Made by a program: the position numbers and the translations under genes. From an uncultured Oscillospiraceae bacterium (GTDB lineage Bacteria > Bacillota > Clostridia > Oscillospirales > QAMX01), in assembly GCA_964448855.1 (NCBI GenBank), contig CAYUXI010000013.1, positions 674-64,673 of the forward strand: a DNA stretch of 64,000 bases, written 5' to 3'. Positions 5,631 to 63,215 of the stretch are shown here, piece after piece (position 1 is the stretch's first letter; every line of letters starts with the position of its first letter). The notes beneath the pieces were generated by a model. The model was given only the letters and a program-made list of their open reading frames with translations. It was not told the origin of the DNA and did not search any database.

Positions 5631-5653
5631 ATTACGGAAAGGATTGTTTCATT

Positions 5654-7387: not shown

Positions 7388-7398
7388 AGCATTTCAAA

Positions 7399-7435
7399 AA
7401 CCGCCCCGGGCTGTTTGACACAGCTCGGGGCGGTT
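7399..7435. terminator. Hairpin between the convergent GH36 and hypothetical genes
   Basis: AACCGCCCCGGGCTG-tttgaca-CAGCTCGGGGCGGTT. Confidence 0.75.
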
Positions 7436-7496
7436 GCATTGTCTGTTTCAGGTACGGCGCGCGGGTGGGGTGCAGAAAAATCGCGGGTGGAGTGCG

Positions 7497-8243
7497 TCAG
7501 GCATAGCGGTACAGGTTTTCCCGGCCGCTCCGGCCAACGCACGAAACGGCCTGCATGGAGACGAGCAGGTTCAGCGCCTGCTGGGCATCGCGTCGGCGGA
7601 TATGCGCCGCAGCGGCCAGAACGGCGCTGGTAAACGGTTCCTCCATCCCCTGCGGCAGCAGGGCTGCATAGTCGGCGGGTGTGCGCAGGGCGATGACGGA
7701 GCGCAGCGCGGTGGGGATTTTTTCATAGCGCGTTGCGTGGCGTTTTCGCGTTTCGCCGGTTCCATCCAGCAATCGGTATTCGTCCAGCGTCAAGCAGACG
7801 AGATCGACCGTCAGCCCCGGCATTTGCAGCCGGGATTTGAGCGCACAGAGCTCCGACAGCGCCTCCAGCGGCTTGCCGTGGAGGCGGGAGCGCCTCGTTT
7901 CCACAACCTCCCCGCTCGTCGGCTCCAGCCAGAGGATGCGCGCATCGGTCACCACCGGGCAGACGATTCGAACATCCGTCACCGGCAAAAAGGCGTCCAG
8001 CTTCCGCGCCAGCCGGTGCAGCTGTGCCGTCTGGATTTCCACGGCGCACGTTTCCGTCAAGGCATCCGTCACGTAGCCCTGCAGCTTGCGTTCGTGGCGC
8101 GTCTCGTCCGGCTCATAGAAGTATTTCAGCGTGAGGTGCAGCGTTTTTTCGCCGAGAGAGCCAATCCCGTTTTCGCCGCGCTGCGCCTCGGCGGCGCGGA
8201 GGCAGGCTTCCGCAAACGATTGCTGCTGTTCCGTCTCAGTCAA
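7497..8243 (-). CDS. Conserved hypothetical protein, possible PD-(D/E)xK nuclease-like fold
   Basis: TTG start after GGAAGGAG; GIGSLGEKTLH and YVTD...VEIQT motifs; extended -10 TGGTATAAT upstream. Confidence 0.6.
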   Translation of the reverse strand: MTETEQQQSFAEACLRAAEAQRGENGIGSLGEKTLHLTLKYFYEPDETRHERKLQGYVTDALTETCAVEIQTAQLHRLARKLDAFLPVTDVRIVCPVVTDARILWLEPTSGEVVETRRSRLHGKPLEALSELCALKSRLQMPGLTVDLVCLTLDEYRLLDGTGETRKRHATRYEKIPTALRSVIALRTPADYAALLPQGMEEPFTSAVLAAAAHIRRRDAQQALNLLVSMQAVSCVGRSGRENLYRYA

Positions 8244-8336
8244 GGGTCATGGCTCCTTCCCGTTTTTTTGGATATCCGCCCTTGATTATACCACATTTTG
8301 CCGCATTTGAAAAGGGATTCCGTGCGTTTTTCCGGT

Positions 8337-10661
8337 TTATGTGACCGGCAGCTCGTGATCGGTATAATGCAGCACGATCACGGTGCGATCGTCGCCGTTG
8401 TCGTCCGTTTTCGCCATCCGCAGCAGCAGCTCGGACAGCTCCCGCGGATTGTCGCAGTGCAGCTTTTTCAGGCAGCTGCAAAATTCCTCCGGCGGTTGAC
8501 CCGCCAGGACACCGTCGCTGGTCAGGACGATCAGGTCGCCCGGCGTGAGTGCTGTCCGCGTCACACTGATTTCCTCCATCGACGGCTTGCCGCCCAGAAT
8601 GCGGACGTGGTAGGTGCTCCCGCATTTGCGCCGGAGGAAGGTCGGTGCGGCGCGATATTTGATCGTGTGGAGCTCGCCGGTTTTCGGGTGCACCACAGCA
8701 ATGTCCATTGTTGCAAAATTGTCGCCGTCTGAGCGAATCTGCACGGAGGAGCGGATGATATCGACAGCCTGTCCCGGCTCGATGCCCGCTCTGAGAAAGC
8801 TCTCCAGCAGCTTCACCGTTCGCACGGCCTCCTCCCGCGCTTCCGTCCCGCTGCCCATGCCGTCGCAGAGCACCACGTACATACTGCCGTCCTTCCCGGT
8901 GAAATACGTCCCACAGTCGCCGCTGATGCGTTCTCCGCGCTTTTTCTCGGCGGTTGCACCGATTTGGCAGGAGCACTCCGGGCGTTCGGAAAAGGTCATG
9001 CAGGAGAGGTGCCGTCCTTCCAGCTGCTCCGGCATCGCCATCCGCACGCCGCTGATGCGGCTGATGGCATCTGCCAGCTCTTCGCCGCGGCCGTTCAGCG
9101 TCCGTAGATTCGTCCCGCACAGCTCGACGTGCAGGCGATCCTCGCCGTCCCGGTAGGCAATCACCTCGGCCACTGCGCCGTATTCCGCCGTCAGGCGCTT
9201 CAGCTCCGCTTCCAACTTCGCCTCAAACTGCGGTTCATTTGACAGCTCCACCGCCTCCGCATCCAGCAGCGCCGACAGTTGGCCGTACTGCCGGGAGAGG
9301 AGCGCACGGTTGTCGCGGTACTCCCCTTTTCGGATGTGCCGCTCCCGTCCGGCGCGAATGGCGAGCGTCAGGCAGGCGCAGACATCGTCCAGCCGCGGGC
9401 AGCGCGTGCGGACGCTTTCACAGAAATCCGTCGGCTCCGCACGGCCACGACCCATCATGGCACGAAAGCCCGACGCCATTTCCCGGATGCAGCCTGTCCG
9501 GTTGTCGCAGCGGCCGCAGGAGGCCTCCAAGCCCTCCGCCAGCCAATCCGTTTCCTGCGCGTTCTCGCACGTCTGGGCGGGCTCCATGGTCTTCGCCAGA
9601 TCATCATAGGCACCCGCCAGACTTTGCAGCCTGGCCTGCATATGGCGGCGGATGTGGGCATCCGCGCCGCTGTGGTCGGTTGACATTTTACTGATCGGGC
9701 AGTGGAGCCACGCATCCGGCAGGAGTGCGAAGGCGGCTGCGCCGACGGCCGCTTCGATCACAGCACCGATCGACTGCGCTTCCGTCGGAAGGAGCAGAAT
9801 GGCCGCGCCGTGGACGACGACGACTGTCAGCGCTGCTGCCATGCGACCGCCGCGGATGCTCCATCCGGCAGTGAGGCCGCCGAGCGCATACAACGCCGTG
9901 CAGAGCGGAACACCGGAGCCGGTCAAATCCATGGTCAGGCCGATGGCCAGCCCCGCAACGGTTCCGCCGTAGGCTCCGGCTGCATACGCGGCGGTGAGCA
10001 CCAGTGCGACGGCGGCCATGCAGCCGATGCGAAGCGACAGGCTGCCGATGGAAAAGCCCGGCAGCGCTGCGCCGCAGAGGGCCAGCAGAACGAGCTGCGC
10101 GAGGAACTCTTTTTCCGCATCGAGCGCACCGGGCACGCGGCGGTTGGAGCCGTGGAGCGCCGTAGCGAACACGAGTGCTGCGGCCATGGAGAGCATCAGC
10201 TCTGCGAGATCGAGCAGCAGAGCCAGCGCACCGCCGCCCGAGGTCAGGTGCCAGACCATCCCCGTCAGGCCAATCGCCAGTCCGGTCGAGAGCATGGCAA
10301 AAAGCGGTGTACGCGTTCGGAACACCTGTCGCAGCGTCAGCTTGAGCATCATGGCGATCAGCGCGGCGGCCAGGTAGCGGATGCTGTCGATGCGGTTCCA
10401 GGCGGCGCAGGTGCCGATCAGAACGCCCGCCGCTGTCGCCAGCAGCCGTTTGTTTTTCTGCTGTGCCTGCAAAAACGACACGCCGAACGGTGCGCGGCTG
10501 CCGTAGATGATGGTCTGTGCCAGCAGGAAGCCGCCGGCCGCAGCCAGGCAGAGCGCCAGCACCTCCCGCTGTCCGGGCATCCGCTGTCCGGGCATCCGCT
10601 GTCCGGGCATCCGCTGTTCGCGTCCTTCTGTCGTGTTCGGGTCAAATTCCAAGAGTTTCAT
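8337..10661 (-). CDS. spoIIE: Stage II sporulation protein E (membrane PP2C phosphatase)
   Basis: About 10 N-terminal TM segments; C-terminal PP2C motifs ISGD, VLCDGMGSG, FATMD, TSDGV, GDDRTV; RBS AGGAAGGA before ATG 10661. Confidence 0.85.
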   Translation of the reverse strand: MKLLEFDPNTTEGREQRMPGQRMPGQRMPGQREVLALCLAAAGGFLLAQTIIYGSRAPFGVSFLQAQQKNKRLLATAAGVLIGTCAAWNRIDSIRYLAAALIAMMLKLTLRQVFRTRTPLFAMLSTGLAIGLTGMVWHLTSGGGALALLLDLAELMLSMAAALVFATALHGSNRRVPGALDAEKEFLAQLVLLALCGAALPGFSIGSLSLRIGCMAAVALVLTAAYAAGAYGGTVAGLAIGLTMDLTGSGVPLCTALYALGGLTAGWSIRGGRMAAALTVVVVHGAAILLLPTEAQSIGAVIEAAVGAAAFALLPDAWLHCPISKMSTDHSGADAHIRRHMQARLQSLAGAYDDLAKTMEPAQTCENAQETDWLAEGLEASCGRCDNRTGCIREMASGFRAMMGRGRAEPTDFCESVRTRCPRLDDVCACLTLAIRAGRERHIRKGEYRDNRALLSRQYGQLSALLDAEAVELSNEPQFEAKLEAELKRLTAEYGAVAEVIAYRDGEDRLHVELCGTNLRTLNGRGEELADAISRISGVRMAMPEQLEGRHLSCMTFSERPECSCQIGATAEKKRGERISGDCGTYFTGKDGSMYVVLCDGMGSGTEAREEAVRTVKLLESFLRAGIEPGQAVDIIRSSVQIRSDGDNFATMDIAVVHPKTGELHTIKYRAAPTFLRRKCGSTYHVRILGGKPSMEEISVTRTALTPGDLIVLTSDGVLAGQPPEEFCSCLKKLHCDNPRELSELLLRMAKTDDNGDDRTVIVLHYTDHELPVT
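10566..10617. repeat. 15-bp tandem repeat x3.5 (QRMPG repeats in the SpoIIE N-tail)
   Basis: CCGCTGTCCGGGCAT at 10566, 10581 and 10596, partial copy at 10611. Confidence 0.95.
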
Positions 10662-50200: not shown

Positions 50201-50944
50201 TTACAGAATGGCCTCCGTGCCGTCCAGCGCGATGACAACCGGGATATCCAGCTTCTTCGCCAGCGCCTGAATCAGCGGGACGCCGCTGCGGCCATATTGG
50301 ATGCCGTAATGATTGAAGATGATTTTTTCCGTGCCGGAATCCTTGAGAATCGGCTCATACAGCGCCGCATCGAAATGCGCCGTTTCGCAGACGACGATCT
50401 GCGGGCGCTCTGCCAGCAGCGGCAGCGGGAAATCGACGTCCGGGCTGCGGAGATCCCCGGTAAACAGGATTTTCTTGCCGGTTGCCACTTCCTCGAGCAG
50501 GAACGAATAGGAAAAATCGCAGTGCTGTGTCCGGCAGGCCGTCACGCGGAGAACCCCGTCCTCAAAAATGACACCGGGCTGAATCACGCGGAAATCCATC
50601 GGGCGCATGGCCATCTGCAGTGTGGAGAACCAGCCGTTCAGCGCCTGAATGCCCCGTTCGTGCGGGAAAAAGATGGCTGCATCGACCGTCCGGAAATACC
50701 AGTTGGCCAGGTCGACAAAGCTGAGCAGGCCGTCGATGTGGTCGCCGTGGAGATGCGTCAGGAAGATGCCCTTGACGGAATCCGGTGCCATGTCGCGTGT
50801 GATCAGTTCGTCAATCGCCTGCATCCCCATATCGACAAAATAGCGGTTCGCCCCGCATTCGACGAGTGCGCAGGAGCAGTGCCGGTGCTTTTCCGGCACG
50901 CCGTGGCTTGTCCCTAAAAAAATCAGTCTCATGATCTGTTTCAC
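50201..50944 (-). CDS. Metallo-beta-lactamase fold hydrolase (RNase Z-like)
   Basis: FLGTSHGVP, FVDMG, THLHGDH, FTGD. Confidence 0.85.
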   Translation of the reverse strand: MKQIMRLIFLGTSHGVPEKHRHCSCALVECGANRYFVDMGMQAIDELITRDMAPDSVKGIFLTHLHGDHIDGLLSFVDLANWYFRTVDAAIFFPHERGIQALNGWFSTLQMAMRPMDFRVIQPGVIFEDGVLRVTACRTQHCDFSYSFLLEEVATGKKILFTGDLRSPDVDFPLPLLAERPQIVVCETAHFDAALYEPILKDSGTEKIIFNHYGIQYGRSGVPLIQALAKKLDIPVVIALDGTEAIL

Positions 50945-52191: not shown

Positions 52192-53127
52192 TTATTGCAG
52201 ACCCATTGCCGCGTTCAGGCGTTCTGACAGCTCATGCGCGGCGTTGTAGCCCATGCGTTTGTTGCGGTCGTTCATGGCGGCGACCTCAATGATGATGGCC
52301 AGGTTGCGCCCCGGGCGCACCGGAACCGTCAGGGACGGCACGTCGATGCCCAAAATGTTCGTATATTCCGTATCCTCGCCCAGGCGGTCATAGATTTTGC
52401 CCTCTTTCCAGGGCTCCAGATGAATCACCAGATCCACCTTTTCCGTCATTTTGACGGCAGCCATACCAAACAGGCGCTTGACGTCAATGATGCCGATGCC
52501 GCGCAGCTCGACGAAGTGGCGAATGATTTCCGGCGCGCTGCCCACCAGCGTTTTCGACGAGACGCGTTTGATCTCGACGGCATCGTCGGCGATCAGGCGG
52601 TGGCCGCGCTTCACAAGCTCGATGGCCGTTTCGCTCTTGCCGACACCGCTGTCGCCCATGAGCAGAATGCCCTCGCCGTACACCTCAATCAGCACGCCGT
52701 GCCGGGTGATGCGCGGAGCCAGGTGGATTTTCAGCGCAGCGATCAGCGCGCTCAACGTGGTGGAAGAGTCTTCCTTTGTCCGCAGAATCGTCACGCCGTA
52801 CTCCTTCGCCAGCTCCAGACATTCGGGATACGGCTCAATGTTGCGCGTGATGATCAGCGCGGGAATGTTCATTTTGAAGAGCTTTTCCAGAGAGGAACGG
52901 CGGCGTTCCGGCGTAAACCGGCTCAGGAAGGTCGTTTCGACCTTGCCGATCATCTGGAGACGTTCATTGTCGAAGAAATCATAAAAACCGGCCAGCTGAA
53001 GCCCACAGCGATTGACGTCGTCCGAATAGACCAGAATATCCCGATAGCCCTCCGGTGCCGTTTCAACTGTAAAGGCCAGCTCATCAATCAGCGTTCCGAG
53101 TGCCACACTGTATCGGACACTATCCAT
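52192..53127 (-). CDS. hprK: HPr(Ser) kinase/phosphorylase
   Basis: RCGLQLAGF, HGVLIEVYGEGILLMGDSGVGKSETAIEL, ADD, ELRGIGII, PVRPGRNLAIIIEVAA. Confidence 0.97.
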   Translation of the reverse strand: MDSVRYSVALGTLIDELAFTVETAPEGYRDILVYSDDVNRCGLQLAGFYDFFDNERLQMIGKVETTFLSRFTPERRRSSLEKLFKMNIPALIITRNIEPYPECLELAKEYGVTILRTKEDSSTTLSALIAALKIHLAPRITRHGVLIEVYGEGILLMGDSGVGKSETAIELVKRGHRLIADDAVEIKRVSSKTLVGSAPEIIRHFVELRGIGIIDVKRLFGMAAVKMTEKVDLVIHLEPWKEGKIYDRLGEDTEYTNILGIDVPSLTVPVRPGRNLAIIIEVAAMNDRNKRMGYNAAHELSERLNAAMGLQ

Positions 53128-53207
53128 TTTGGAACATCTCCTCTCTGTTGTGAACCGGTGCATTTCCGTCGCGAAAAGCTCCCGGTTCCAATTCTCATCC
53201 ATTCTTT

Positions 53208-53282: not shown

Positions 53283-53311
53283 TTGACGTGCGAATCGATC
53301 TATGGTATACT
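53283..53311 (+). promoter_or_regulatory. SigA promoter of the nucleotidyltransferase gene, divergent from hprK
   Basis: TTGACG-17-TATACT with extended TG at 53303-53304. Confidence 0.7.
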
Positions 53312-53413
53312 GAATTAGGAGTTCCTCGACCCGTGCATGAGCCGCGTGATGTCTCCATGACGTATGATTGTCCTGTCAGCCAGCCGTTTTTGATGAGAGG
53401 AGTGTGTCCTTCC

Positions 53414-55102
53414 ATGCCATCTATGACCGATCGATTGATGCAGTTTCTTCAGCTGCACGCATCTGCCAAATCCCCTGCAGCGTTGGATGTCGTCGCTTTC
53501 CTGTCCGCACACCGTGTTCCCCTGCCGAGCGCCGCAGCGCCTGAAGATCTGGGTCAGAAAATTCAGCTGATTACGCAGCAGTATGTCCAGACAAAGCTGC
53601 TCAATGCCATGCAGGAGTTGCTTTTGTGTTTCCAATCGCACAGCATCGACATCCTGTTTCTGAAAGGTCCGCTGCTGGGATTGGAGCTGTATGGTGAAAC
53701 CGGAATCCGTCCAACGTCCGATCTCGATCTGTTTGTTCCGGATGCTCAGGTTGCCGATGCGCTGGAGGCATTGACGCAGCTCGGTTATACCCGAACAAAC
53801 GGCACGCCCTACTCCGGGAAGGATCGTGTTTATGACCTGAACCGTGGCGATATGCGTCTGAAAATGATGGGGCGACATCTGACTGCCGTTCGATCTTCCA
53901 AAAACTGGACGATCACGCTGGAATTGCACGCCACGCTGTTTCGGCACTATGATACCGTTTCACCAACCTCTTTGGCATCACAGGCAGACCTGATTGTTTC
54001 TGACAGCCGCACCCTATCCTGTCAGGGGGTTGACTATCCCGTTCCGGGCGTTTTGGATTCGTTCCTGATGCTCTGCACGCACTTTGCACGGCATACGGTG
54101 GAAGCAGTGACCGCATTCTGTGCCAAAAAGCAGCAGCCGCGTTTTCCGCTGCATCAGCTGCATGATCTCGCACTCTTTTTTGAGCACTGGTCGGATGTGC
54201 TGTCAGCTTCCGACCTTTTGGCGCGTGCCATAGCGTTCGGCAGTCAGGCCGATCTGGCATTTGCCTGCCGCTATCTGCAGGAGGTTTACGGAATCGACCT
54301 TTGGCAATCCATTGCCCCTGATCTTTTGGGTGAAGCCGATGATGATTTTGAAAACGATATCGTATGGAGCATTTTGCGGCAGCTTTCCGCCACAGAGCTG
54401 CTGTTTTGCGCACCATCAGACAATCTTGCCCGTTTGAAAAGCGTTGCTCCTGCTCGCCGCTGTTATGAGCTCCAGACCGGGCGCGAGCTTTCTGCCGTTC
54501 TGGCCGACTGCGAGGTTCGGGAGGTCTTTGATGATCCGTCCCGGCCACCTTTGCGGGAGCCTTATTCCTTTCGTTGGGGTGCTGCGCGTTCAGATGATCA
54601 GCTCATGTTTTGCGTGGAAATTCCAACAGAGCGTGTTGTTTTTCTGGAAGGATGCCAGAAAAACTTTCGTCGCAACTGTACCCGCTCCGACTGTCCGAGA
54701 GACTGTGCTGCGCAGCACGGCGCCAACACGCTGATTCGTTTGCTGCTGCCCGGAACCTGCTGTTCAGTCGAGGCCGGAAGCTGCATGAATCGCTATGAAA
54801 TCAGCGTGATCCAGACAGCAGAAGGTCTCCGGATAACCGCAGACCGCAATGGGCATCCATTTGCTCTATCCGGTGCGGCTGTTGCAGAGAAAGATGGCTG
54901 CTGGCAATTTCGGTTTCAGTTGCCGATACCTGATCCCGGCGATTCCAACGCGCTGCCTTTTATGATTTCCCGTGAAATTCTGCTTCCATTTGCTCACCGT
55001 CCGGATCAGGCCATCGCCTTCAGCGTGCGCTGGCTGAACAGTGTGGCGGTTTCACATCAGACCTGTCTGAGCTGCGGGCTGCTGCTGGCATCCCGCCGGT
55101 GA
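53414..55102 (+). CDS. Nucleotidyltransferase family protein (NTP_transf_5-like) with a C-terminal extension
   Basis: FLKGPLLGLELYGETGIRPTSDLDLFV signature, LELH, LCTHFARH, LHDLAL; RBS GAGAGGAG. Confidence 0.8.
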   Translation: MPSMTDRLMQFLQLHASAKSPAALDVVAFLSAHRVPLPSAAAPEDLGQKIQLITQQYVQTKLLNAMQELLLCFQSHSIDILFLKGPLLGLELYGETGIRPTSDLDLFVPDAQVADALEALTQLGYTRTNGTPYSGKDRVYDLNRGDMRLKMMGRHLTAVRSSKNWTITLELHATLFRHYDTVSPTSLASQADLIVSDSRTLSCQGVDYPVPGVLDSFLMLCTHFARHTVEAVTAFCAKKQQPRFPLHQLHDLALFFEHWSDVLSASDLLARAIAFGSQADLAFACRYLQEVYGIDLWQSIAPDLLGEADDDFENDIVWSILRQLSATELLFCAPSDNLARLKSVAPARRCYELQTGRELSAVLADCEVREVFDDPSRPPLREPYSFRWGAARSDDQLMFCVEIPTERVVFLEGCQKNFRRNCTRSDCPRDCAAQHGANTLIRLLLPGTCCSVEAGSCMNRYEISVIQTAEGLRITADRNGHPFALSGAAVAEKDGCWQFRFQLPIPDPGDSNALPFMISREILLPFAHRPDQAIAFSVRWLNSVAVSHQTCLSCGLLLASRR

Positions 55103-55203
55103 AGCTTTCGTCGTTTGCTGCAGCCGCCAATTCGCAAAGCCGAATCGGCTGATTATCGAACCTGTACTCGACACATTTGCCAGACCGGGACATCGCATAT
55201 GAA

Positions 55204-55402
55204 TTGAAGGATTTTTACAATTTTGGTGTTGGTATGGTGGTGTATTTGTGAAAGCGCAGACTGAACCTGTTTCAGGTGATGTCTGCGCTTTTTTCGTTTT
55301 TTTGTAAAGAAACGGCCATACCATTGCACCGACAAGGAATCAATAAGGAGAAGGTCGGATCATGGGAACTGAATGGAAAAAGAGTCGGTATGCATTCTTT
55401 AT
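55204..55402 (+). repeat. Copy 1 of the duplicated rSAM leader plus first 13 codons
   Basis: 55204-55296 matches 55547-55638 (2 substitutions, 1 T indel); 55338-55402 is identical to 55687-55751 (65 bp). Confidence 0.95.
55251..55294 (+). terminator. Intrinsic terminator-like hairpin in leader copy 1
   Basis: AAAGCGCAGAC...GTCTGCGCTTT followed by a T-tract. Confidence 0.7.
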
Positions 55403-55433
55403 GTTTTCTATGTTTCTTTCACTAAGCTCTTGA
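55362..55433 (+). pseudogene. Truncated 5' stub of the rSAM gene (MGTEWKKSRYAFF + 10 unrelated residues)
   Basis: Identical RBS and first 13 codons to the 55711 CDS, then TGA at 55431-55433. Confidence 0.75.
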
Positions 55434-55458
55434 CAGTCGAATGAAAATCTGATATAAT
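55430..55458 (+). promoter_or_regulatory. Perfect-consensus SigA promoter upstream of the rSAM operon
   Basis: TTGACA (55430-55435), 17 nt, TATAAT (55453-55458). Confidence 0.9.
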
Positions 55459-55546
55459 TTAGATAATTAAAGAATTCAATGATTTCATCAGTAAGCAACC
55501 AGATGAGCCCGCACTCAGTTTAGCATGCAAAGAAACCGCATGGTAT

Positions 55547-55751
55547 TTGAAGGATTTTTACAGTTTTGGTGTTGGTATGGTGGTGTATTTGTGAAAGCGC
55601 AGACTGAGCCTGTTTCAGGTGATGTCTGCGCTTTTTCGGGCTTTGCCAAGAAAAATCAAAACCGGTCATACCATTTATCAGCAAGTAATCAATAAGGAGA
55701 AGGTCGGATCATGGGAACTGAATGGAAAAAGAGTCGGTATGCATTCTTTAT
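55547..55751 (+). repeat. Copy 2 of the duplicated leader (the one attached to the intact rSAM gene)
   Basis: See copy 1; contains hairpin 55594-55634, RBS AAGGAG and ATG 55711. Confidence 0.95.
55594..55636 (+). terminator. Terminator-like hairpin inside the rSAM 5' leader (attenuator candidate)
   Basis: 11-bp stem plus T5 between the promoter and the start codon. Confidence 0.65.
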
Positions 55752-57033
55752 TGAGCAGGAAAATGGCGAAATGATCATTTATCATTCGGCAACAGGTTTT
55801 ATCTTACAATGTACAGAACCGGAATACATTGAAAAGGCAGTAAAGATCGCCAATCAATCCGTTTTTGAAATGGATGAAGAAAATGACCTGATGTGTTTGC
55901 TACGAGACAAAGGCGTTCTTTTGGCAAACGATTTTGACGAAGATGCTCAAGTTCGGCAATTGTACGATCGGGTCGTTATGCACAGGAATCAACTTTCTCT
56001 GACATTAATTGTAACGAGGCAGTGTAATTTCCGTTGCGTTTACTGCGGTCAGAAACACGAGAGCAACAAGCGTATGTCTCGTGAAGTCTATGATAGAATC
56101 ATATCGTTGATCGAAAAAACATGCCATGATAAAAAGATAGACAGTGTCTCTGTTTCTTTTTTTGGCGGAGAACCGCTTTTGGAATGTGAAAGAATTCTAT
56201 ATTTTTTGGATAAATTACAGGAATTTTCAAAAAAGACCGGGATTCCCTATTATGCAGGAATGACCACAAATGCATATTTGCTGACGAAAAATAATTTTGA
56301 GCGTTTGGCACAGCTGAATTGTTTGGATTATCAAATAACACTGGATGGTATGGATGAGACTCATGACCAAAAAAGATATCTCATAGGAAAAAGGAAAACA
56401 TGGAAAACCATCGTAGATAATCTGCTCTATATCAAGTCAACAGATTATCCTTTTAAAATCATTTTGAGGACAAATTTCGATACAGAAGTTTTGCAATCAG
56501 TAGATTCTTATTTGAATTTCGTATCGGAAAATTTGAATGATGATCGTATCCTGATGTATCATGAAACCATTAAAGACCACGGGAATCCCGAACAAAACGA
56601 ATACATGTCGCAATCTGAAGCAATTTTCAGCAATGTCGAAATTTCCCGTCTTTTGAAAGAGAAGAATTTGAAATCGTCACTTGTTTTTTCTTCAACAACC
56701 CCTGCCTGTTCGATGTGTCGAGCAGGAATTCCTGATTATTATGTAATCGATTACGATGGAAGTATCAAAAGATGTACTCACCGATTGGATACCGAACCAA
56801 ACTACCTAGGAAATCTGTCAGATGATGGTTCCATGATCATTGACCATTCTCTGGATGCAAAATGGATTTATCGGGACTATTTGTCTGATGATAAATGTAA
56901 AGAGTGCAAATTACTTCCTCTGTGTTTTGGAAAACGTTGTCCTGTTGCGCGGGTAGACCCCCAATTGGCGTTCGACTGTAACAAAGATTTACGTGCTTTG
57001 GAATTGGAGGAAATCCTACGCGTTCATTTGTAA
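55711..57033 (+). CDS. Radical SAM/SPASM peptide maturase
   Basis: CNFRCVYC (CxxxCxxC), FFGGEPLL, TTNAYLL, QITLDG; SPASM Cys ACSMC, KRC, CKECKLLPLCFGKRCP, FDC; ~85-aa N-terminal extension (RRE-like). Confidence 0.92.
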   Translation: MGTEWKKSRYAFFIEQENGEMIIYHSATGFILQCTEPEYIEKAVKIANQSVFEMDEENDLMCLLRDKGVLLANDFDEDAQVRQLYDRVVMHRNQLSLTLIVTRQCNFRCVYCGQKHESNKRMSREVYDRIISLIEKTCHDKKIDSVSVSFFGGEPLLECERILYFLDKLQEFSKKTGIPYYAGMTTNAYLLTKNNFERLAQLNCLDYQITLDGMDETHDQKRYLIGKRKTWKTIVDNLLYIKSTDYPFKIILRTNFDTEVLQSVDSYLNFVSENLNDDRILMYHETIKDHGNPEQNEYMSQSEAIFSNVEISRLLKEKNLKSSLVFSSTTPACSMCRAGIPDYYVIDYDGSIKRCTHRLDTEPNYLGNLSDDGSMIIDHSLDAKWIYRDYLSDDKCKECKLLPLCFGKRCPVARVDPQLAFDCNKDLRALELEEILRVHL

Positions 57034-57074
57034 AGAGACAGGATAAACTATTCAGGAAGAAAGGAGGATCAAGT

Positions 57075-57212
57075 ATGCATGTGATTCAAGATGCAGCGAC
57101 CCCCGCAGTGATTGCACGCAGAGCGCAAAGCAATGGTTGTGATTGCAATTGTGATTGTCATGGTGGTTCCGGTAGCTCCGGGGGAACCAATTGCAATTGT
57201 CATTGCAGCTAA
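57075..57212 (+). CDS. Cys-rich RiPP precursor 1, 45 aa: MHVIQDAATPAVIARRAQSNGCDCNCDCHGGSGSSGGTNCNCHCS
   Basis: Manual translation, not in the ORF track; strong RBS GAAAGGAGG 6 nt upstream; 7 Cys; paralogous to precursor 2. Confidence 0.88.
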   Translation: MHVIQDAATPAVIARRAQSNGCDCNCDCHGGSGSSGGTNCNCHCS

Positions 57213-57246
57213 TCGTCCCAATCTGCACAACAATTTTATTGAAAGG

Positions 57247-57390
57247 ATGAGAAAATACCATATCTTAAAAGACATTACGATTCCTGCGTCCATTGCACGC
57301 AACAACCAGGAAAATGGTTGTGATTGCGATTGTAATGAAGGTTGCAATGGCGGTTCTGCCGGTAGAAATTGCCACTGTCTTTGCAGCTAA
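57247..57390 (+). CDS. Cys-rich RiPP precursor 2, 47 aa: MRKYHILKDITIPASIARNNQENGCDCDCNEGCNGGSAGRNCHCLCS
   Basis: 3' half of track ORF 57112-57390; aligns with precursor 1 in leader and core; start uncertain because GAAAGG abuts the ATG. Confidence 0.82.
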   Translation: MRKYHILKDITIPASIARNNQENGCDCDCNEGCNGGSAGRNCHCLCS

Positions 57391-57397
57391 GCCGTCT

Positions 57398-57437
57398 GTC
57401 ACGGCAGGCAGATTTTTTGAAATCTGCCTGCCGTGAC
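57398..57437 (+). other. 18-bp perfect stem-loop between the precursors and the ABC gene
   Basis: GTCACGGCAGGCAGATTT-tttg-AAATCTGCCTGCCGTGAC; no strong U-tract follows. Confidence 0.85.
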
Positions 57438-57483
57438 TCCAAATCTTTCCAATCATCCAACACACAGAAAAGAGGATTCTGTT

Positions 57484-59298
57484 ATGAAAACCTTGAAAAG
57501 GGTACTTGGCTGCCAGTCTTTTATGCTAAAGCGAATGTATCGGGACAGCAAGCGGCTTTTTTATGTGACACTGATTCAGTCGATTCTGACCGGTATGTAT
57601 CCAACCATCGAGCTGGTTATCAGTAGGAACCTGATTGATGCCCTGGTACGGCTTTCCCTGCGGAATGCCATGATCAGTATTGCACTCCTGATCGGCAGCT
57701 CTCTGCTCTATTACGTTCTGAAAAAGCTGCTGAGCTTGATTGCTGCCAATTCATATCAGCTGATTCGACGCCAGATGCGGTTTGATCTTTTTGAAAAGAC
57801 CTGTTCTCTCGATCTGGCCGTGGCAGATTTGCCGGAAAACAGAACCCTGTATGAAGAAGCGCATGGTGCCAATCAGAACAACCGATGTATGCGTGTTCTG
57901 GATTCCTTTTTCAGCATTTTCACCGCCTGTATCACGTTGATTTCTTCCTATATCGTGATGATCGCGGTCGATCCATGGATTATGATTGTCATTGTCGCAG
58001 TGGTGATTCTGCAATCATTTATCACCATTCGCTCGCAGAAGCTGGCTTATGAGACCTGGCGGGAAGATGCCCGAACCAACAAGGAGGCGTCCTATGTTCT
58101 GGGGTTGCTGTTTGACCGCAACTGTGCCTTTGAAATGCGGCTGCACAATCTGTCACAATGGGTCATTCGGAAATACAACAAGGTGCAGACCAAATCCGAT
58201 CAGCTCTGGCTTGAAAATAACAAAAAGCAGCAGAGAAACGATGTTTTGAATTTTGCCGTACAGCTGGTGCAGAAAGCAATTCTTTACGTTTACCTGGCGC
58301 TGCAGATGCTTTACGCCAATATGACCATTGCGAATTTCACGCTGTGCTTCAATTCTCTGAACCAGATTTCCAACAATCTGGTCGCCCTGATCCGCACATT
58401 TATTGATATTTTTGAGGATTCCAAGTATATTTACAGCTATAAGAAATATCTGGCGTTGGAAAACACAATTGCCGTCCATCGGCCGGATGAAAAGCCGGTC
58501 GCCAGAAATGAAGCCCGCAACAACGAAATTGTCTTTGATCACGTCAGCTTCCGTTATCCGGAAGCACCGGCAGACGTTCTGCACGATATCAACCTGCATC
58601 TGGAGCCGCAGAAGTTTTATGTCATCGTCGGTGCGAACGGCGCCGGGAAAACGACGCTGATCAATCTGCTGATGCGTTTGTATGATCCGTCGAGCGGTTC
58701 GATTCGTTTGGGGCCAACCGATATTCGCGACTATGATTTTCAAAGCTATCGGGACTGTTTCGGTGCGGTTTTCCAGAATTTCAAGGTTTTTGATTATTCG
58801 TTCTTTGAAAACATCACGCTGTCCGAAGAGGAAAACGAGGAGATCGATGCAGAGGTTCAGCAGGTCATTCAGAAGGCCGGATTGGCCAACAAGGTGTCGC
58901 AGCTTGCCAAAGGGATGCACACCTGTGTCGGTAAAGCGTTTGACCAGGATGGCATCAAGTTATCCGGCGGCGAATACCAGAAGGTTGCTCTGGCCAGAGC
59001 GCTGTACAGAGACAGTCAGATTCTGATTCTGGACGAGCCATCCAGCGCGTTGGATGCATTGGCAGAGGATGATTTGATTCAGACCTTCCAGCGAGCCAGC
59101 ACCAACCAGACGGTTTTCTATATATCGCACCGTCTCTCCGTGGCACGCTTTGCATATCGCGTGATTTTTATCGGCGATCATACGATTTTGGGCTACGGCA
59201 GCCACGACGAGCTGATGCAGACCTGTCCGCAGTATGCAGAGATGTATACGGCACAGGCCAAATATTACACGGAAACAGAAACTGCCCCTTCGCACTGA
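57484..59298 (+). CDS. ABC exporter (fused TMD + NBD), no C39 peptidase domain
   Basis: TM helices followed by VGANGAGKTTL, LSGGEYQKVALARA, LILDEPSSALD, ISHRLS. Confidence 0.93.
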   Translation: MKTLKRVLGCQSFMLKRMYRDSKRLFYVTLIQSILTGMYPTIELVISRNLIDALVRLSLRNAMISIALLIGSSLLYYVLKKLLSLIAANSYQLIRRQMRFDLFEKTCSLDLAVADLPENRTLYEEAHGANQNNRCMRVLDSFFSIFTACITLISSYIVMIAVDPWIMIVIVAVVILQSFITIRSQKLAYETWREDARTNKEASYVLGLLFDRNCAFEMRLHNLSQWVIRKYNKVQTKSDQLWLENNKKQQRNDVLNFAVQLVQKAILYVYLALQMLYANMTIANFTLCFNSLNQISNNLVALIRTFIDIFEDSKYIYSYKKYLALENTIAVHRPDEKPVARNEARNNEIVFDHVSFRYPEAPADVLHDINLHLEPQKFYVIVGANGAGKTTLINLLMRLYDPSSGSIRLGPTDIRDYDFQSYRDCFGAVFQNFKVFDYSFFENITLSEEENEEIDAEVQQVIQKAGLANKVSQLAKGMHTCVGKAFDQDGIKLSGGEYQKVALARALYRDSQILILDEPSSALDALAEDDLIQTFQRASTNQTVFYISHRLSVARFAYRVIFIGDHTILGYGSHDELMQTCPQYAEMYTAQAKYYTETETAPSH

Positions 59299-59313
59299 GA
59301 GGAGCTGATTATC

Positions 59314-60192
59314 GTGCCTGTATATTGTATATACGGTTTGTCCGTGGAATCCAATCTCGACTTGTCTGATGTAGATGCAGGTCATCCGGGGATCTGTGAT
59401 ATGCGGCTCCATGTGTCCTTTGCAGAAATGCCACCGGTTCAGCCCATACGGATTCTGGAATCTGAGCAATGGTTGACCATTGAGCTCTTCCCCTTCGCGG
59501 TTTATCGGTTGAGCAGGCATTCCAATGATGTTTTTTGTCAGGCTGCGGATTATGAGTCCTTTTACTCAACATTTTTCAATCTGCCGTTTTCGGTCTTTCT
59601 TGTACAACGCGGCGATCTGCTTTTGCATGCCTCATCACTGGTTCACAGTCAGACAGGTGAGTTGCTCGCTTTTGCCGGACAGAAAGGTGTCGGAAAAAGT
59701 ACGCTGGTACAACTTCTGTGTGGGGAAACGTATCAGATTTATGCAGATGATACCCTACGAATTCCGATGGATACCTCAATGGGATTTCGAGGAAATTCGC
59801 TTTTGAAAATAACACCGGAGACATCTGCCCTCATTCAGGGCAGGCTGCAACTGACGGGACATCAAAATGCAGTCGGAAAAAATTATGCAGCTATTCCAAC
59901 AGACTCCCGGCAACGTCAGATTCGGGCAATTGTTCAATTGGCACGAACTTCGGATGCGTCTTTTTCCATCCGACCGGTGAACACCCCGTTACAGCGTACA
60001 CAAATCATCTGCAGGCACCTGACAGGTATCCCATTCTGGACAGCTTCTATGATTCAAAAGGTCATGCAGCTTGTCAAAAGCGTTGAAATACCTGTTTATT
60101 CCATGCGAATCCCCGATTCTCTGCATTGGTTGGAGCAGCAAACGCCGGACATACGCTCTGCGCTTGAACAGGTAACGAACGAAATTCCCTGA
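59314..60192 (+). CDS. HPr-kinase-like protein of the lasso-cluster (PadeK/PsmK-like) type
   Basis: N-terminal YCIYGLSVESNL, LLHASSL, GQKGVGKSTL Walker A, YADD; GTG start after GAGGAG. Confidence 0.75.
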   Translation: MPVYCIYGLSVESNLDLSDVDAGHPGICDMRLHVSFAEMPPVQPIRILESEQWLTIELFPFAVYRLSRHSNDVFCQAADYESFYSTFFNLPFSVFLVQRGDLLLHASSLVHSQTGELLAFAGQKGVGKSTLVQLLCGETYQIYADDTLRIPMDTSMGFRGNSLLKITPETSALIQGRLQLTGHQNAVGKNYAAIPTDSRQRQIRAIVQLARTSDASFSIRPVNTPLQRTQIICRHLTGIPFWTASMIQKVMQLVKSVEIPVYSMRIPDSLHWLEQQTPDIRSALEQVTNEIP

Positions 60193-60201
60193 CATCCATT
60201 C

Positions 60202-60237
60202 AAAAAGCGTCTGCACGCATTTTGTGCAGACGCTTTT
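60202..60237. terminator. Bidirectional terminator closing the RiPP operon
   Basis: AAAAGCGTCTGCAC-gcatttt-GTGCAGACGCTTTT. Confidence 0.85.
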
Positions 60238-60321
60238 GCGTGTCGTCATGAGGAAAAACGCCTTTTGTCGGATAACAGGTCATTTTCTCTGTGATTCAAG
60301 GAGATCTGTAACTTCACATTT
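60202..60321 (-). ncRNA. Candidate ~120-nt small RNA
   Basis: Lies between a minus-strand TTGACA-17-TATAAA promoter and the bidirectional terminator; no convincing ORF. Confidence 0.4.
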
Positions 60322-60563: not shown

Positions 60564-63215
60564 TCAGCGCACTTCGTCGGGTGAATAGACTTCACCGGTC
60601 AGCACCGGGTGGCAGGTCAGACGGCCATCGGCTGCGTCGAGCACGAGGGTGGAGCCGGCATCCAGATTGCCTGCCAGAATTTCGCGGGCAATGAGCGTTT
60701 CCGCCATGCTTTGCAGGCAGCGTTTCAGCGGCCGTGCGCCGTAAACCGGGTCGTAGCCCTGATCGATGATGAGCGCCTTGGCCGCATCGGTCACTTCCAG
60801 CTGCAGTCCGCCCGCGGCGCGGTCGGCCATACGCGTTTGCAGACCGGCCAGCAGCAGATCGACGATGGCGTTCAGGTTTTCCTTGGTCAGCGGTTTGAAG
60901 AAGACGATCTCGTCCAGGCGGTTCAGGAATTCCGGTCGGAACGCTGTCCGGAGCTCAGCCTGCACACTGGCGCGTGCAGCTTCGCTGACGGAGCCGTCCG
61001 GCAGGATGCCGTCCAGCAGATACTGGCTGCCGAGGTTGGAGGTCAGGATGATGATCGTGTTTTTGAAATCGACGGTGCGACCCTGGCTGTCGGTGATGCG
61101 GCCATCGTCCAGAATTTGCAGCAGGATATTGAACACATCCGGGTGCGCCTTCTCCACCTCATCGAACAGGATGACGCTGTACGGGTGGCGGCGGACGGCT
61201 TCGGTGAGCTGGCCGCCCTCGTCATAGCCGACATATCCCGGAGGCGCACCAATCAGGCGGGACACGCTGAACTTCTCCATGTACTCCGTCATGTCAATCC
61301 GCACCAGACTGCGCTCGTCATCGAACAAGCTCTCGGCCAGCGTTTTGGCCAGCTCCGTTTTGCCGACACCGGTCGGCCCTAAGAAGAGGAAGCTGCCGAT
61401 CGGGCGGTTGGGGTCTGCGATACCGGCACGGCTGCGCTGAATGGCTTCGCTGACCAATCGCACCGCCTCATCCTGTCCGACGACGCGCCGGTGCAGGATA
61501 TCCTCCAGCCGCAGCAGCTTTTCCCGTTCGCCCTCGACGAGCCGGGATACGGGGATGCCCGTCCAGCGCCCAACGACCTCGGCTATCTCCTCATCGGTCA
61601 CGGTGGAACGGACGAGTCGGTTCTGGTTCTGCCGTTCTGCCATCTGTTCGGCCTCCGCCAGCTGTTTTTTCAGCGTCGGCAGCTCGGAATATTGCAGGCG
61701 CGCCGCCTTTTCATATTCGCCGTGCAGCTGAGCCTGTTCCATTTCGCCGGTTTTCTTCTCGATCTCCGTTTTGATTTGCTTAACGGTTTCCGCCGCTTCC
61801 TTCTCCGATGTCCAGCGCGCCTTCATTTCGCGGAGCTGATCCTGCTTTTCCGCAAGCTCCGCCGTCAGCTTGGCCAGACGGTCTTTGGAGAGCTGATCCT
61901 CCTCTTTTTTCAGCGACATTTCCTCGATTTCCATCTGCATGATCTCGCGGCGCAGATCGTCCAGCTCGCTCGGCATGGAGTCAATCTCCGTGCGAATCAT
62001 GGCACACGCCTCATCGACCAGGTCAATCGCCTTATCCGGCAGGAAGCGGTCGGTGATATACCGGTTGGACAGCGTGGCCGCCGCCACCAGTGCGTTGTCG
62101 TGGATGCGGACGCCGTGGAAGATTTCATACCGCTCCTTCAGTCCGCGCAGGATGGAAATCGTATCCTCCACGGTCGGCTCCTCGACGATGACCGGCTGGA
62201 ATCTCCGTTCCAGCGCGGCGTCCTTTTCGATGTATTTGCGGTACTCGTCCAGTGTGGTCGCACCGATGCAGTGCAGCTCGCCACGCGCCAGCATCGGCTT
62301 CAGCAGGTTGCCCGCGTCCATGGAGCCCTCTGTTTTCCCGGCACCGACAATCGTGTGCAGTTCATCGATGAAGAGCAGGATGCGGCCGTCCGCCTTTTTG
62401 ACCTCATTCAGGACGGCTTTCAGGCGCTCCTCAAATTCGCCGCGGTATTTTGCACCGGCCACCAGTGCGCCCATATCCAGCGAAAAAATCGTCTTTTCCT
62501 TCAGGCCGTCCGGCACGTCGCCCCGCACGATTCGCTGCGCCAGTCCCTCAGCGATGGCGGTTTTCCCGACGCCCGGTTCACCGATCAGGACGGGGTTGTT
62601 TTTGCTTTTGCGGGACAGGATGCGGATCACGCTCCGGATTTCGGCGTCCCGGCCGATGACCGGATCCAGCTTCTGCGCCCGTGCGCGTTCGACCAGGTCT
62701 GTGCCGTATTTGTTCAGCACGTCATACGTATCCTCCGGATGGTCGCTTGTCACCGGTGCGCTTTTCACGCGGGACAGCTCCTGCAGGAAGCGTTCCTGCG
62801 TCACGCCGTGCCGTTGGAAAATCCCCTGTACCGTCCGGCCGCCCTCGGCAATCAGACCCAGCATCAGGTGTTCAACGGAGAGGTATTCGTCCTTCAGCTG
62901 TTCCGCCATTTTTTCGGCATAGCGGAGCACAGCCGACACCTCGTTCGACGGATACAGGTCGCCGCCCGTCCCCGTCACCTTCGGCAGCCGTTCCATTTCG
63001 GCATTCAGCTCGCCCAGCATGGCGCCGACCAGATCGGTGTTGCCGCTCTGCCGGCCCATCCGTTCCAGAAGCGTCCCGATCAGGCCGCCCTCCTGCGACA
63101 GCAGCGCATACGCCAGGTGCTCCGGTGCGAGCGTCTGATTCTGTTTGTCCCGCGCCAGATTTTGTGCGCGGTTGATCACATCTATCGTCTTTTGTGTCAT
63201 TTTTTCTGCATTCAT
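60564..63215 (-). CDS. clpB: ATP-dependent chaperone ClpB
   Basis: Two AAA+ modules ([17 protein letters not shown]), coiled-coil M-domain, [18 protein letters not shown]. Confidence 0.97.

Follow-up and report, generated by a model that had tools for sequence, protein, structure and literature searches.

Phosphorylation is rare among peptides that are made by the ribosome and modified after translation (RiPPs), and the reports that we found concern paeninodin-type lasso peptides, the linear polyphosphorylated peptides (LPPs), a cyanobactin kinase domain and few other cases (PMC13381572; PMC12639078). In paeninodin and pseudomycoidin, kinases of the HprK family phosphorylate the C-terminal Ser, after which PsmN, a protein of the NTP_transf_5 type, puts a hexose on the phosphate (PMC12639078; PMC6993621). 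For the LPPs, it was found that a module composed of an HprK-like kinase, an NTP transferase plus a transporter of the MsbA type, together with a RiPP precursor recognition element (RRE) and an SpI-like peptidase, is at work in Bacillota outside lasso clusters (Popov et al. 2026; PMC13381572). In this system phosphorylation depends on LppK, and LppN stayed silent on heterologous expression (PMC13381572). Here, we describe a locus in which a predicted HprK-like kinase and an ATP-binding cassette (ABC) exporter are encoded next to a radical S-adenosylmethionine (rSAM)/SPASM peptide maturase and two small Cys-rich peptides. It lies in a 64,000-nucleotide stretch, hereafter the window, of the genome of an uncultured Oscillospiraceae bacterium (assembly GCA_964448855.1, contig CAYUXI010000013.1, positions 674 to 64,673).

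Six genes of the same strand fill the interval between the housekeeping hprK gene and clpB, and encode a nucleotidyltransferase (NTase), the rSAM protein, two small open reading frames (ORFs), the exporter and the kinase-like protein (Table 1). The original prediction, made on the letters of the window, had listed these six co-oriented genes along with a promoter-like site and a terminator, and every coordinate was borne out. Its description of a RiPP-type cluster with an rSAM/SPASM maturase, twin precursors of seven Cys each, an exporter and an HprK-like kinase is supported as well. We hold with high confidence that the locus is a RiPP cluster belonging to a conserved family.

With the ranthi- and sactipeptide pathways (SCIFF/CteB; freyrasin/PapB; CefB, TIGR04463 and Clo7bot) the locus shares a full-length rSAM/SPASM protein with the CxxxCxxC triad and the seven-Cys auxiliary motif, short Cys-rich precursors adjoining the rSAM gene, and an ABC exporter. 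Yet, in contrast to these pathways, the window rSAM remains below each trusted cut-off, the precursors alternate C-D/N-C-x-C and match no precursor model, and an HprK-like kinase, usually accompanied by an NTP_transf_5 protein, is conserved in the cluster family. In the literature, the pairing of an HprK-like kinase with NTP_transf_5 was not found described for any thioether RiPP. In turn, the locus resembles the paeninodin and pseudomycoidin lasso clusters (PadeK/PsmK, PsmN) in having an HprK-superfamily kinase, an NTP_transf_5-type transferase, an ABC exporter and Ser-ending precursors, but it lacks the macrolactam synthetase, the B1/B2 peptidase or RRE and the [Y/W]xxP leader motif, and its class-defining enzyme is an rSAM protein. 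The absence of a lasso cyclase and of a B peptidase had been noted before; we accounted for every ORF between hprK and clpB and none carries these domains. A cryptic lasso cluster is thus rejected, as the cyclase and B genes are absent and the interval offers no space for them.

The LPP clusters share with the window a module of HprK-like kinase, NTP transferase and transporter of the MsbA type, but the window does not encode an SpI-like peptidase, a discrete RRE or the YxxPxVLxHQ leader motif of the LPP definition (PMC13381572). The LPPs themselves are linear, involve no rSAM protein and carry the LppK site at Ser3 of the core. In the original prediction the tailoring enzymes were regarded as borrowed from lasso pathways; this wording does not hold, since the kinase/NTase/ABC set is a portable tailoring module already shown in the non-lasso LPPs (PMC13381572). 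The likeness of the window kinase to PadeK, PsmK and LppK is one of NCBIfam and ScmC profiles, not of direct comparison.

Curated HprK-like models are also available for ScmC (TIGR04249/PF27840), which NCBIfam names "SynChlorMet cassette protein", and for the NCBIfam HprK-related kinases A and B. Homologs of the window kinase match these models, but all scores lie far under the cut-offs (24 vs 200 bits for the window protein). The corresponding systems are found in peptide-modification cassettes of other phyla with other partner proteins, SynChlorMet being one with rSAM/SPASM proteins. The set of genes had been presented as not recognised among characterised classes, and within our incomplete coverage of the literature we found no paper on an rSAM/SPASM protein with CxCxC precursors and an HprK-like kinase. 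It is a new combination and an uncharacterised family, but not a new category; every enzyme family involved is already known, and no concept is overturned.

Table 1. Genes and sequence elements of the RiPP locus and its flanks, in window coordinates
Feature	Position	Strand	Evidence and remarks
hprK, housekeeping gene	52192-53202	-	TIGR00679, 366 bits; one flank of the interval
Sigma-70-like promoter candidate, TTGACG-17-TATACT, upstream of NTase gene	53283-53311	+	consensus scan 10/12; pattern match only
NTP_transf_5 NTase, 562 aa	53414-55102	+	PF14907, E 8.5e-30, 104.6 bits vs cut-off 31.2
Intrinsic terminator hairpin and U-run after NTase gene, duplication copy 1	55250-55292	+	-26.4 kcal/mol, z -4.9
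rSAM-start remnant: ribosome-binding site and first 13 codons, running into a 23-aa ORF	55362-55433	+	direct repeats D1, D2, 92-99% identity
Perfect consensus promoter, TTGACA-17-TG-TATAAT	55430-55458	+	12/12 consensus matches
Second hairpin copy, weaker U-tail, in 5' leader of rSAM operon	55593-55635	+	-30.6 kcal/mol, z -4.8
Radical SAM/SPASM peptide maturase, 440 aa	55711-57033	+	PF04055 (E 3.6e-15) and PF13353; Radical_SAM plus Fer4_12
Precursor peptide 1, 45 aa, MHVIQDAATPAVIARRAQSNGCDCNCDCHGGSGSSGGTNCNCHCS	57075-57212	+	ORF with GGAGG ribosome-binding site
Precursor peptide 2, 47 aa from ATG (start uncertain), MRKYHILKDITIPASIARNNQENGCDCDCNEGCNGGSAGRNCHCLCS	57247-57390	+	ORF
Perfect 18-bp stem-loop after precursor genes, no U-tail	57398-57437	+	inverted repeat I5, 100% complementary; -34.2 kcal/mol, z -9.8
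MsbA-like ABC exporter, 604 aa (membrane and ATPase domains)	57484-59298	+	PF00005; MsbA-type alignment, residues 62-592
Predicted HprK-like (PEPCK-fold) P-loop kinase, 292 aa	59314-60192	+	family-level profiles, AF2 model
Intrinsic terminator closing the operon	~60201-60238	+	-24.6 kcal/mol, z -5.5, then UUUU
clpB	60564-63215	-	other flank of the interval

A database search with the rSAM protein returned 634 relatives, and the genomic context was fetched for 12 of them. Close to rSAM homologs with identities of 40-94%, the same genes were met again in about ten other, diverged loci of uncultured Clostridia, which argues that the arrangement is not due to chance. The usual order in the family is rSAM, precursor, ABC, kinase and NTP_transf_5, with ABC proteins 35-60% and kinase homologs 30-39% identical to those of the window, and in nearly all related loci an ABC ortholog is encoded after the precursor. 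In the window exporter, Pfam and NCBIfam detected no C39 peptidase domain.

Loci L001 and L002 of the same species (rSAM 94%) retain the same arrangement at the same site. In L003 (66%), the rSAM gene is followed by a Cys-rich small ORF, an ABC gene (60%), a kinase homolog (39%) and then NTP_transf_5. A Cys-rich small ORF, an ABC gene, a kinase homolog and NTP_transf_5 likewise follow it in L091 (45%), L092 and L097 (42% each) and L098 (40%), and L094 (44%), examined as far as the kinase homolog, shows the first three of these. In L086 (60%) a Cys-rich small ORF is seen and the contig ends soon after, and in L089 (46%) the Cys-rich ORF lies upstream of the rSAM gene and a split kinase homolog is followed by the ABC and NTP_transf_5 genes. 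L003, L089, L091, L092, L094, L097 and L098, all with rSAM proteins of 40-66% identity and a CxCxC-rich small ORF, are independent metagenomic contigs. Two distant rSAM relatives, L093 of Tepidibacter (37%) and L099 (35%), possess the rSAM, precursor and ABC genes only. Co-occurrence of the kinase with this rSAM clade in other genomes, on which the original prediction had been made to depend, is thus observed. A scan of species genomes with the rSAM profile is uninformative for co-occurrence, as the relatives among the matches listed do not exceed 38% identity and have neither a kinase nor CxCxC precursors.

The two precursors of the window each contain seven Cys and end in Ser. In precursor 1, a leader of about 20 aa is followed by the core CDCNCDCHGGSGSSGGTNCNCHCS; precursor 2 ends with ...NGCDCDCNEGCNGGSAGRNCHCLCS and its core is CDCDCNEGCNGGSAGRNCHCLCS. 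The leaders, MHVIQDAATPAVIARRAQSNG and MRKYHILKDITIPASIARNNQENG, are devoid of a YxxP motif. Neither peptide matches any NCBIfam or Pfam family at E<=0.01, the SCIFF and CLI_3235 precursor families included. Precursors of the related loci were recovered by translation; gene callers often skip or misframe them. Orthologs of precursor 1 occur in L001, L003 and L086, and across the family the cores are highly divergent (CDCNCDCHGGSGSSGGTNCNCHCS, HCNCSCGYGNGGNGGNDCNCHCGKGNGGNGGTDCNCGCGYTS, CDCVCPQVCPNAGCPEINVGCNNCIATS, CDCHCDEPQTACINVGACS, CDCNCVQVACPQVGCPTFNPGCS). A C-terminal Ser is present in all precursors from kinase-bearing loci (11/11), and in L091, L092 and L097 it is the sole Ser of the whole precursor, whereas the precursors of the kinase-less L093 and L099 end in Glu, Gly or Cys. 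That the C-terminal Ser tracks the presence of the kinase is the best evidence at hand that the kinase acts on these peptides, and from this pattern we consider it moderately probable that the kinase phosphorylates their last residue.

Where precursor 2 begins is less certain: in the region 57247-57262, GAAAGG is the sole purine-rich candidate for a ribosome-binding site, and it abuts the ATG. The L001 counterpart, ...NGCNCNCNCHGGSDGGSGGTKCNCRCS, is without any ATG and probably starts, at ~9150-9170, with ATT or ATA, a good AGGAGG site lying upstream.

The rSAM protein retains the Cys motifs expected of a SPASM-type maturase. In an alignment of 36 homologs, the Cys residues of the CxxxCxxC triad (C105, C109 and C112) and seven C-terminal ones (C336, C355, C396, C399, C405, C410 and C423) are invariant, and the spacing of the latter in the translation, CX13GX4C and CX2CX5CX4C, fits the SPASM pattern for two auxiliary clusters; the Pfam SPASM model gave no match at E<=0.01. 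The protein aligns full-length to the CefB, TIGR04463, geopeptide, Clo7bot and PapB models of NCBIfam, in each case below the cut-off (bits vs trusted cut-off: CefB 180.6/600, TIGR04463 176.5/525, PapB 112.5/340), and its best NCBIfam models are all maturases of the rSAM/SPASM type acting on Cys-rich peptides. The CcpM/CLI_3235 and SCIFF models, to which the original prediction had pointed, do not provide an assignment: the rSAM protein stays under their cut-offs (CcpM 90.4/500, SCIFF 54.9/425) and the precursors match neither family. The best solved relative is CteB (5wgg, E 5.6e-27), a thioether-forming SCIFF maturase. PapB forms thioethers between Cys and Asp/Glu (PMC9413430). Judged by homology to CteB and PapB-type enzymes, the odds that the window rSAM catalyzes thioether chemistry appear evenly balanced, and Cys-Asp/Asn thioethers would be plausible given the conserved C-D/N-C-x-C start of the core.

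An exhaustive search with hidden Markov models identified 1153 relatives of the kinase-like protein, and an alignment of 74 sequences was built. The only positions invariant among these homologs are H105, G127-K128 and D145-D146, which together make up H...GxGKS...ADD, the signature of the HprK catalytic domain, and this motif aligns with its counterpart in the genuine HprK of the window (hhalign, E 3.2e-5). HprK_rel_A is matched by 45 of the 74 homologs, HprK_rel_B by 44 and ScmC by 13, while the Pfam Hpr_kinase_C and HPr(Ser) kinase models are matched by nine and five, respectively. A comparison with the ScmC-type kinase encoded beside a PqqD RRE in the LPP-like cluster of L092 gave a probability of 97% (hhalign, E 9e-11). 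The AF2 model computed from the deep alignment reached a pLDDT of 96, with phosphoenolpyruvate (PEP) carboxykinase (PEPCK) as the top Foldseek match (E 5e-9); an earlier model from five sequences (pLDDT 63) was discarded as poor. The catalytic C-domain of HprK belongs to the PEPCK fold superfamily. Taken at the level of alignment and predicted structure, the 292-aa protein is a real P-loop protein of the HprK/PEPCK fold. A metagenome scan with the kinase profile gave at least three loci, and the only plasmid match, which carries the annotation Hpr(Ser) kinase/phosphatase, has a nucleotidyltransferase and sulfotransferases as neighbors.

The gene identities, the conserved architecture and the association of a C-terminal Ser with the kinase are established by these data, and put together they suggest, with moderate confidence, the following pathway. 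Transcription would proceed from the perfect consensus promoter ahead of the rSAM gene, and the strong hairpin after the precursor 2 gene would enrich the precursor mRNA. The two precursors (45 and 47 aa) would open with a leader some 20 aa long (M-x-I/V-x-Q/E-D ... NG), followed by a core beginning with C-D-C-x-C, into which the rSAM/SPASM protein would put intramolecular cross-links via Cys, most likely thioethers of the sacti-/ranthipeptide type with the inter-Cys Asp/Asn residues as plausible acceptors. The HprK-like kinase would add at least one phosphate to the invariant C-terminal Ser, by analogy with PadeK and PsmK, the neighboring NTase may attach a further group to this phosphate, by analogy with the hexose of PsmN, and the ABC transporter would export the product. 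The product would most likely be an exported, Cys-cross-linked small peptide with a phosphorylated C-terminal Ser.

Several observations weigh against this pathway. For no named maturase family does the rSAM protein come near the trusted cut-off (best score about 180 vs 600 bits), and with scores this low its reaction cannot be transferred with confidence. The precursors of the kinase-less relatives carry CGCGC motifs; as Gly has no beta-carbon, a ranthi-type link from Cys to Asp/Asn is not the universal reaction of the clade, whose common chemistry may be a different one, e.g., alpha-carbon links. Neither a leader peptidase nor a stand-alone RRE is encoded in the interval, and an N-terminal RRE was not detectable in the rSAM protein by hhalign against a PqqD protein. 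The similarity of the kinase-like protein to HprK proteins is remote: as a single sequence it gives only a weak match to HprK_rel_B (E 1.7e-5), PDB sequence searches find Walker A (P-loop) matches only, and the top 50 Foldseek matches are all PEP carboxykinases, with no HprK chains among them. LppK acts on Ser3 of the LPP core and not on the C-terminus (PMC13381572), so the choice of site differs within the kinase family. In turn, the stretch from the NTase gene of the window to its rSAM gene contains a terminator and a separate consensus promoter, and the history of this NTase is separate from that of the genes downstream. Frameshifted copies of the rSAM or kinase genes are present in some related assemblies.

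The base composition sets the locus apart from its surroundings. The GC content across 55-60 kb is 0.37-0.49, as compared with about 0.60 for the remaining window, and the segment comprising the rSAM gene, both precursor genes, the exporter gene and the kinase-like gene, referred to below as the island, has a GC content of 0.45 vs 0.60 for the host. In every host, the GC content of the cluster is below that of the flanks (e.g., 0.36 vs 0.55 in L098), and the cluster is missing from relatives that share the hprK-dnaG neighborhood. With its low GC content relative to the flanks and its cluster-free relatives, the island behaves as a mobile accessory element, and the rSAM-precursors-exporter-kinase operon is probably a horizontally acquired RiPP biosynthetic operon inserted beside a resident NTP_transf_5 gene.

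The NTase belongs to PF14907, as had been expected. Its N-terminal domain (residues 43-293) is followed by about 270 aa with no assigned function, and the metal-binding SDLDL motif of the polymerase-beta type is intact, S102-D103-L104-D105 aligning with SDIDI of a cluster NTase. The catalytic role of the DxD residues is known from the D134A/D136A mutant of PsmN (PMC6993621).

Several lines of evidence indicate that this gene was at the site before the island. The nearest non-self homolog (52%) occupies the same site, divergent from hprK, in L103 (9001-12705), where it is followed by an unrelated ABC gene (26% identity) and where the rSAM, precursor and kinase genes are absent. The GC content of the NTase gene is 0.55, as compared with 0.45 in the island. 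Whereas the related clusters have such a gene downstream of the kinase gene, this one is placed upstream of the rSAM gene, and its product shares only 22-33% identity with the cluster-type NTases, in partial alignments that span 54-221 residues. Given the ortholog at a cluster-free site, together with the GC content, position and identity, the NTase predates the island at this site and is probably a resident neighbor that was not transferred with it.

It may then be that the NTase stands outside the pathway altogether, so that the functional cluster is confined to 55.4-60.2 kb and its product is phosphorylated and nothing further, a possibility to which we give a little less than an even chance and to which the terminator and the promoter dividing the NTase gene from the rSAM gene also point. 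However, in nearly all related clusters the kinase comes with an NTP_transf_5 gene, the arrangement of NTase and island is conserved in L001 and L002, and the NTase is missing from the island-free L100-L102, where a gap of about 770 bp (~8234-9001) at its position holds no called gene and no NTase match. It is striking that the only island without an NTase of its own at the 3' end directly adjoins one, and a coincidence seems unlikely. Functional recruitment of the resident NTase by the island is possible, and we tentatively allow, with somewhat more doubt than belief, that the NTase of the window takes part in the pathway. The association of an NTase with this rSAM, part of the original prediction, therefore stands for most related loci, in which NTP_transf_5 follows the kinase gene, and is doubtful for the window's own copy, which is likely resident in view of the L103 ortholog and the GC content. 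The question concerns one component, and either answer is compatible with the pathway proposed above.

Motifs of CxCxC with His and Asp resemble metal-thiolate motifs, and the precursors exhibit a CxCxCxC ... CxCxC pattern with both residues. The peptides might thus bind zinc, copper or iron in the manner of metallothioneins or metallophores, with the rSAM protein sparing some of the thiols. Genes of ZIP-family permeases (PF02535) adjoin the cluster in two independent contexts, one in L089 (13189-13977) and L090 (6889-7677) and the other in L091 (two copies, 4341-5132 and 6393-7178), and a gene of a CsoR-type metal repressor lies about 3 kb upstream in L093. Yet, the window, L003, L092, L097 and L098 have neither a ZIP gene nor a metal regulator adjoining the cluster. 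From one locus to the other the ZIP proteins share 57-62% identity (69% for the pair in L091), and at this level they could be mere host orthologs. Moreover, thioether formation, the reaction of the nearest functionally known enzymes, removes thiols. We regard a metal-binding product as unlikely, and Cys cross-linking by the rSAM protein as the preferred reading of these cores.

The case for the 292-aa protein being something other than a peptide kinase, i.e., a P-loop NTPase with an accessory, scaffold or immunity role, builds on the fact that Pfam, like the PDB searches, yields generic P-loop matches only for the window protein, and that the HprK-related NCBIfam models matched by the family are functionally uncharacterised "hypothetical equivalogs". 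It is contradicted by the conservation of the HprK-specific His and ADD residues besides the P-loop, by the predicted PEPCK/HprK-like fold, and by the perfect correspondence between the presence of the protein and a C-terminal Ser in the precursors. In addition, experimentally proven peptide kinases of the superfamily act in the same kind of module (PMC13381572; PMC6993621). A non-kinase role is hence quite improbable, and we retain the assignment as a predicted peptide kinase.

Some copies of these genes are disrupted. Adding a single T to the T6 run (56202-56207) of the rSAM gene reproduces a truncated product, ...ILYFFG followed by a stop (P0295, 167 aa), and an rSAM split into 167 plus 257 or 282 aa (second ORF P0296 or P0294) was found in 7-13 other contigs of the same species/90% protein cluster. 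The indel in the T6 run could reflect phase variation, pseudogenisation or an assembly error. In L001 (11227-12104) a T-run is the site of a frameshift in the kinase gene, and this gene is split into ORFs of 140 and 114 aa in L089 (9334-10039) and L090 (3034-3739), which represent one other species in two independent samples. Although the split rSAM and kinase genes could be taken as signs of a decaying remnant with no current product, this is very unlikely, as the window has all five island genes intact, preceded by good ribosome-binding sites and served by a consensus promoter and a terminator, core residues are kept across homologs of 40-94% identity, and indels in homopolymers may stem from faulty assembly or from reversible phase variation.

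The region between the NTase and rSAM genes has been rearranged, specifically in this genome, over about 345 bp (55189-55751), with the segment 55189-55402 duplicating 55532-55751. The duplicated segment takes in the terminator hairpin and the start of the rSAM gene, with its ribosome-binding site and 13 initial codons. The repeat copies are separated by a unique insert of 129 bp with 33% GC, which contains the consensus promoter that likely drives the rSAM operon. Neither duplication nor insert is found in the same-species L001, where the segment is present in single copy. A mobile element was considered as the origin of the insert, of which there is no second copy in the window or in any fetched locus. 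Aligned with L001, the terminator hairpin is almost fully conserved, copy 1 differing at a single position of the aligned stretch and copy 2 at none, in contrast to the divergent flanks. The second hairpin copy is a possible attenuator.

The hairpin is included in an element of about 70 nt (TTGGTGTTGGTATGGTGGTGTATTTGTGAAAGCGCAGAC...GTCTGCGCTTTTT) located between the NTase and rSAM genes, in the operon leader. It is nearly identical at 55224-55295 and 55567-55640 of the window and at ~7450-7520 of L001, with flanks of about 70% identity, and may as a whole act as an attenuator. An Rfam search over 52-61 kb, this element included, gave no match, and thus no known riboswitch is present in the operon leader. 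The stem-loop after the precursor genes likely stabilises the transcript or terminates it in part, and would in this way set the ratio of precursor to enzyme.

Some of the related loci contain further genes. In L003 (12242-14969) and L091 (12261-14847), a short NTP_transf_5 gene (~300 aa) is followed by genes of a PP-binding acyl carrier protein (ACP) and of a protein of 476-485 aa with weak HAD/NIF phosphatase matches, possibly FkbH-like. This gene content suggests an extra decoration of the acyl or glyceryl type in these relatives. In L092, an LPP-like cluster (4869-7762, - strand) is positioned back-to-back with the rSAM cluster. It encodes two peptides with a Y-x-x-P leader (MRYEEPQMEITLIEAEDIITSS..., MKYIEPKIEITIFEKEDIV...), the ScmC-type kinase, the PqqD RRE, an S24/S26-like peptidase with a GTSMRP motif and a 353-aa protein ending in GWSDWWTPEY, a tail shared with one of its peptides. 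In the window itself, a gene for a protein of the metallo-beta-lactamase fold (50201-50944, - strand) lies between an HD-domain gene and dnaG, and its L001 ortholog was flagged as PF23023 (Anti-Pycsar Apyc1-like). Because it is located in a conserved housekeeping operon, it probably encodes a phosphodiesterase of the cell itself rather than a counter-defence protein of a phage.

Viewed more broadly, and as a proposal of which we are rather doubtful in its entirety, the family might constitute an undescribed RiPP subclass of gut and rumen Clostridia. Its members would be CxCxC peptides cross-linked by an rSAM protein and (poly)phosphorylated at the C-terminal Ser, with NTP_transf_5 decorating the phosphate, an ACP and HAD-like pair in some relatives, and a product perhaps involved in metal (zinc) handling, as the adjacent ZIP genes of some loci would hint. 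If true, this would be the first phosphorylated thioether RiPP, and the kinase/NTase/ABC module would be a general plug-in working with unrelated class-defining enzymes, for which a family combining an rSAM/SPASM protein with an HprK-like kinase would provide a third scaffold. The prediction is clean and testable, namely a shift of +80 Da at the last Ser, and the peptides, with cores of about 25 aa, would offer very small substrates for studying rSAM action on alternating Cys motifs. As these low-GC islands occur in several uncultured gut Clostridia, their products may matter for competition or metal economy there.

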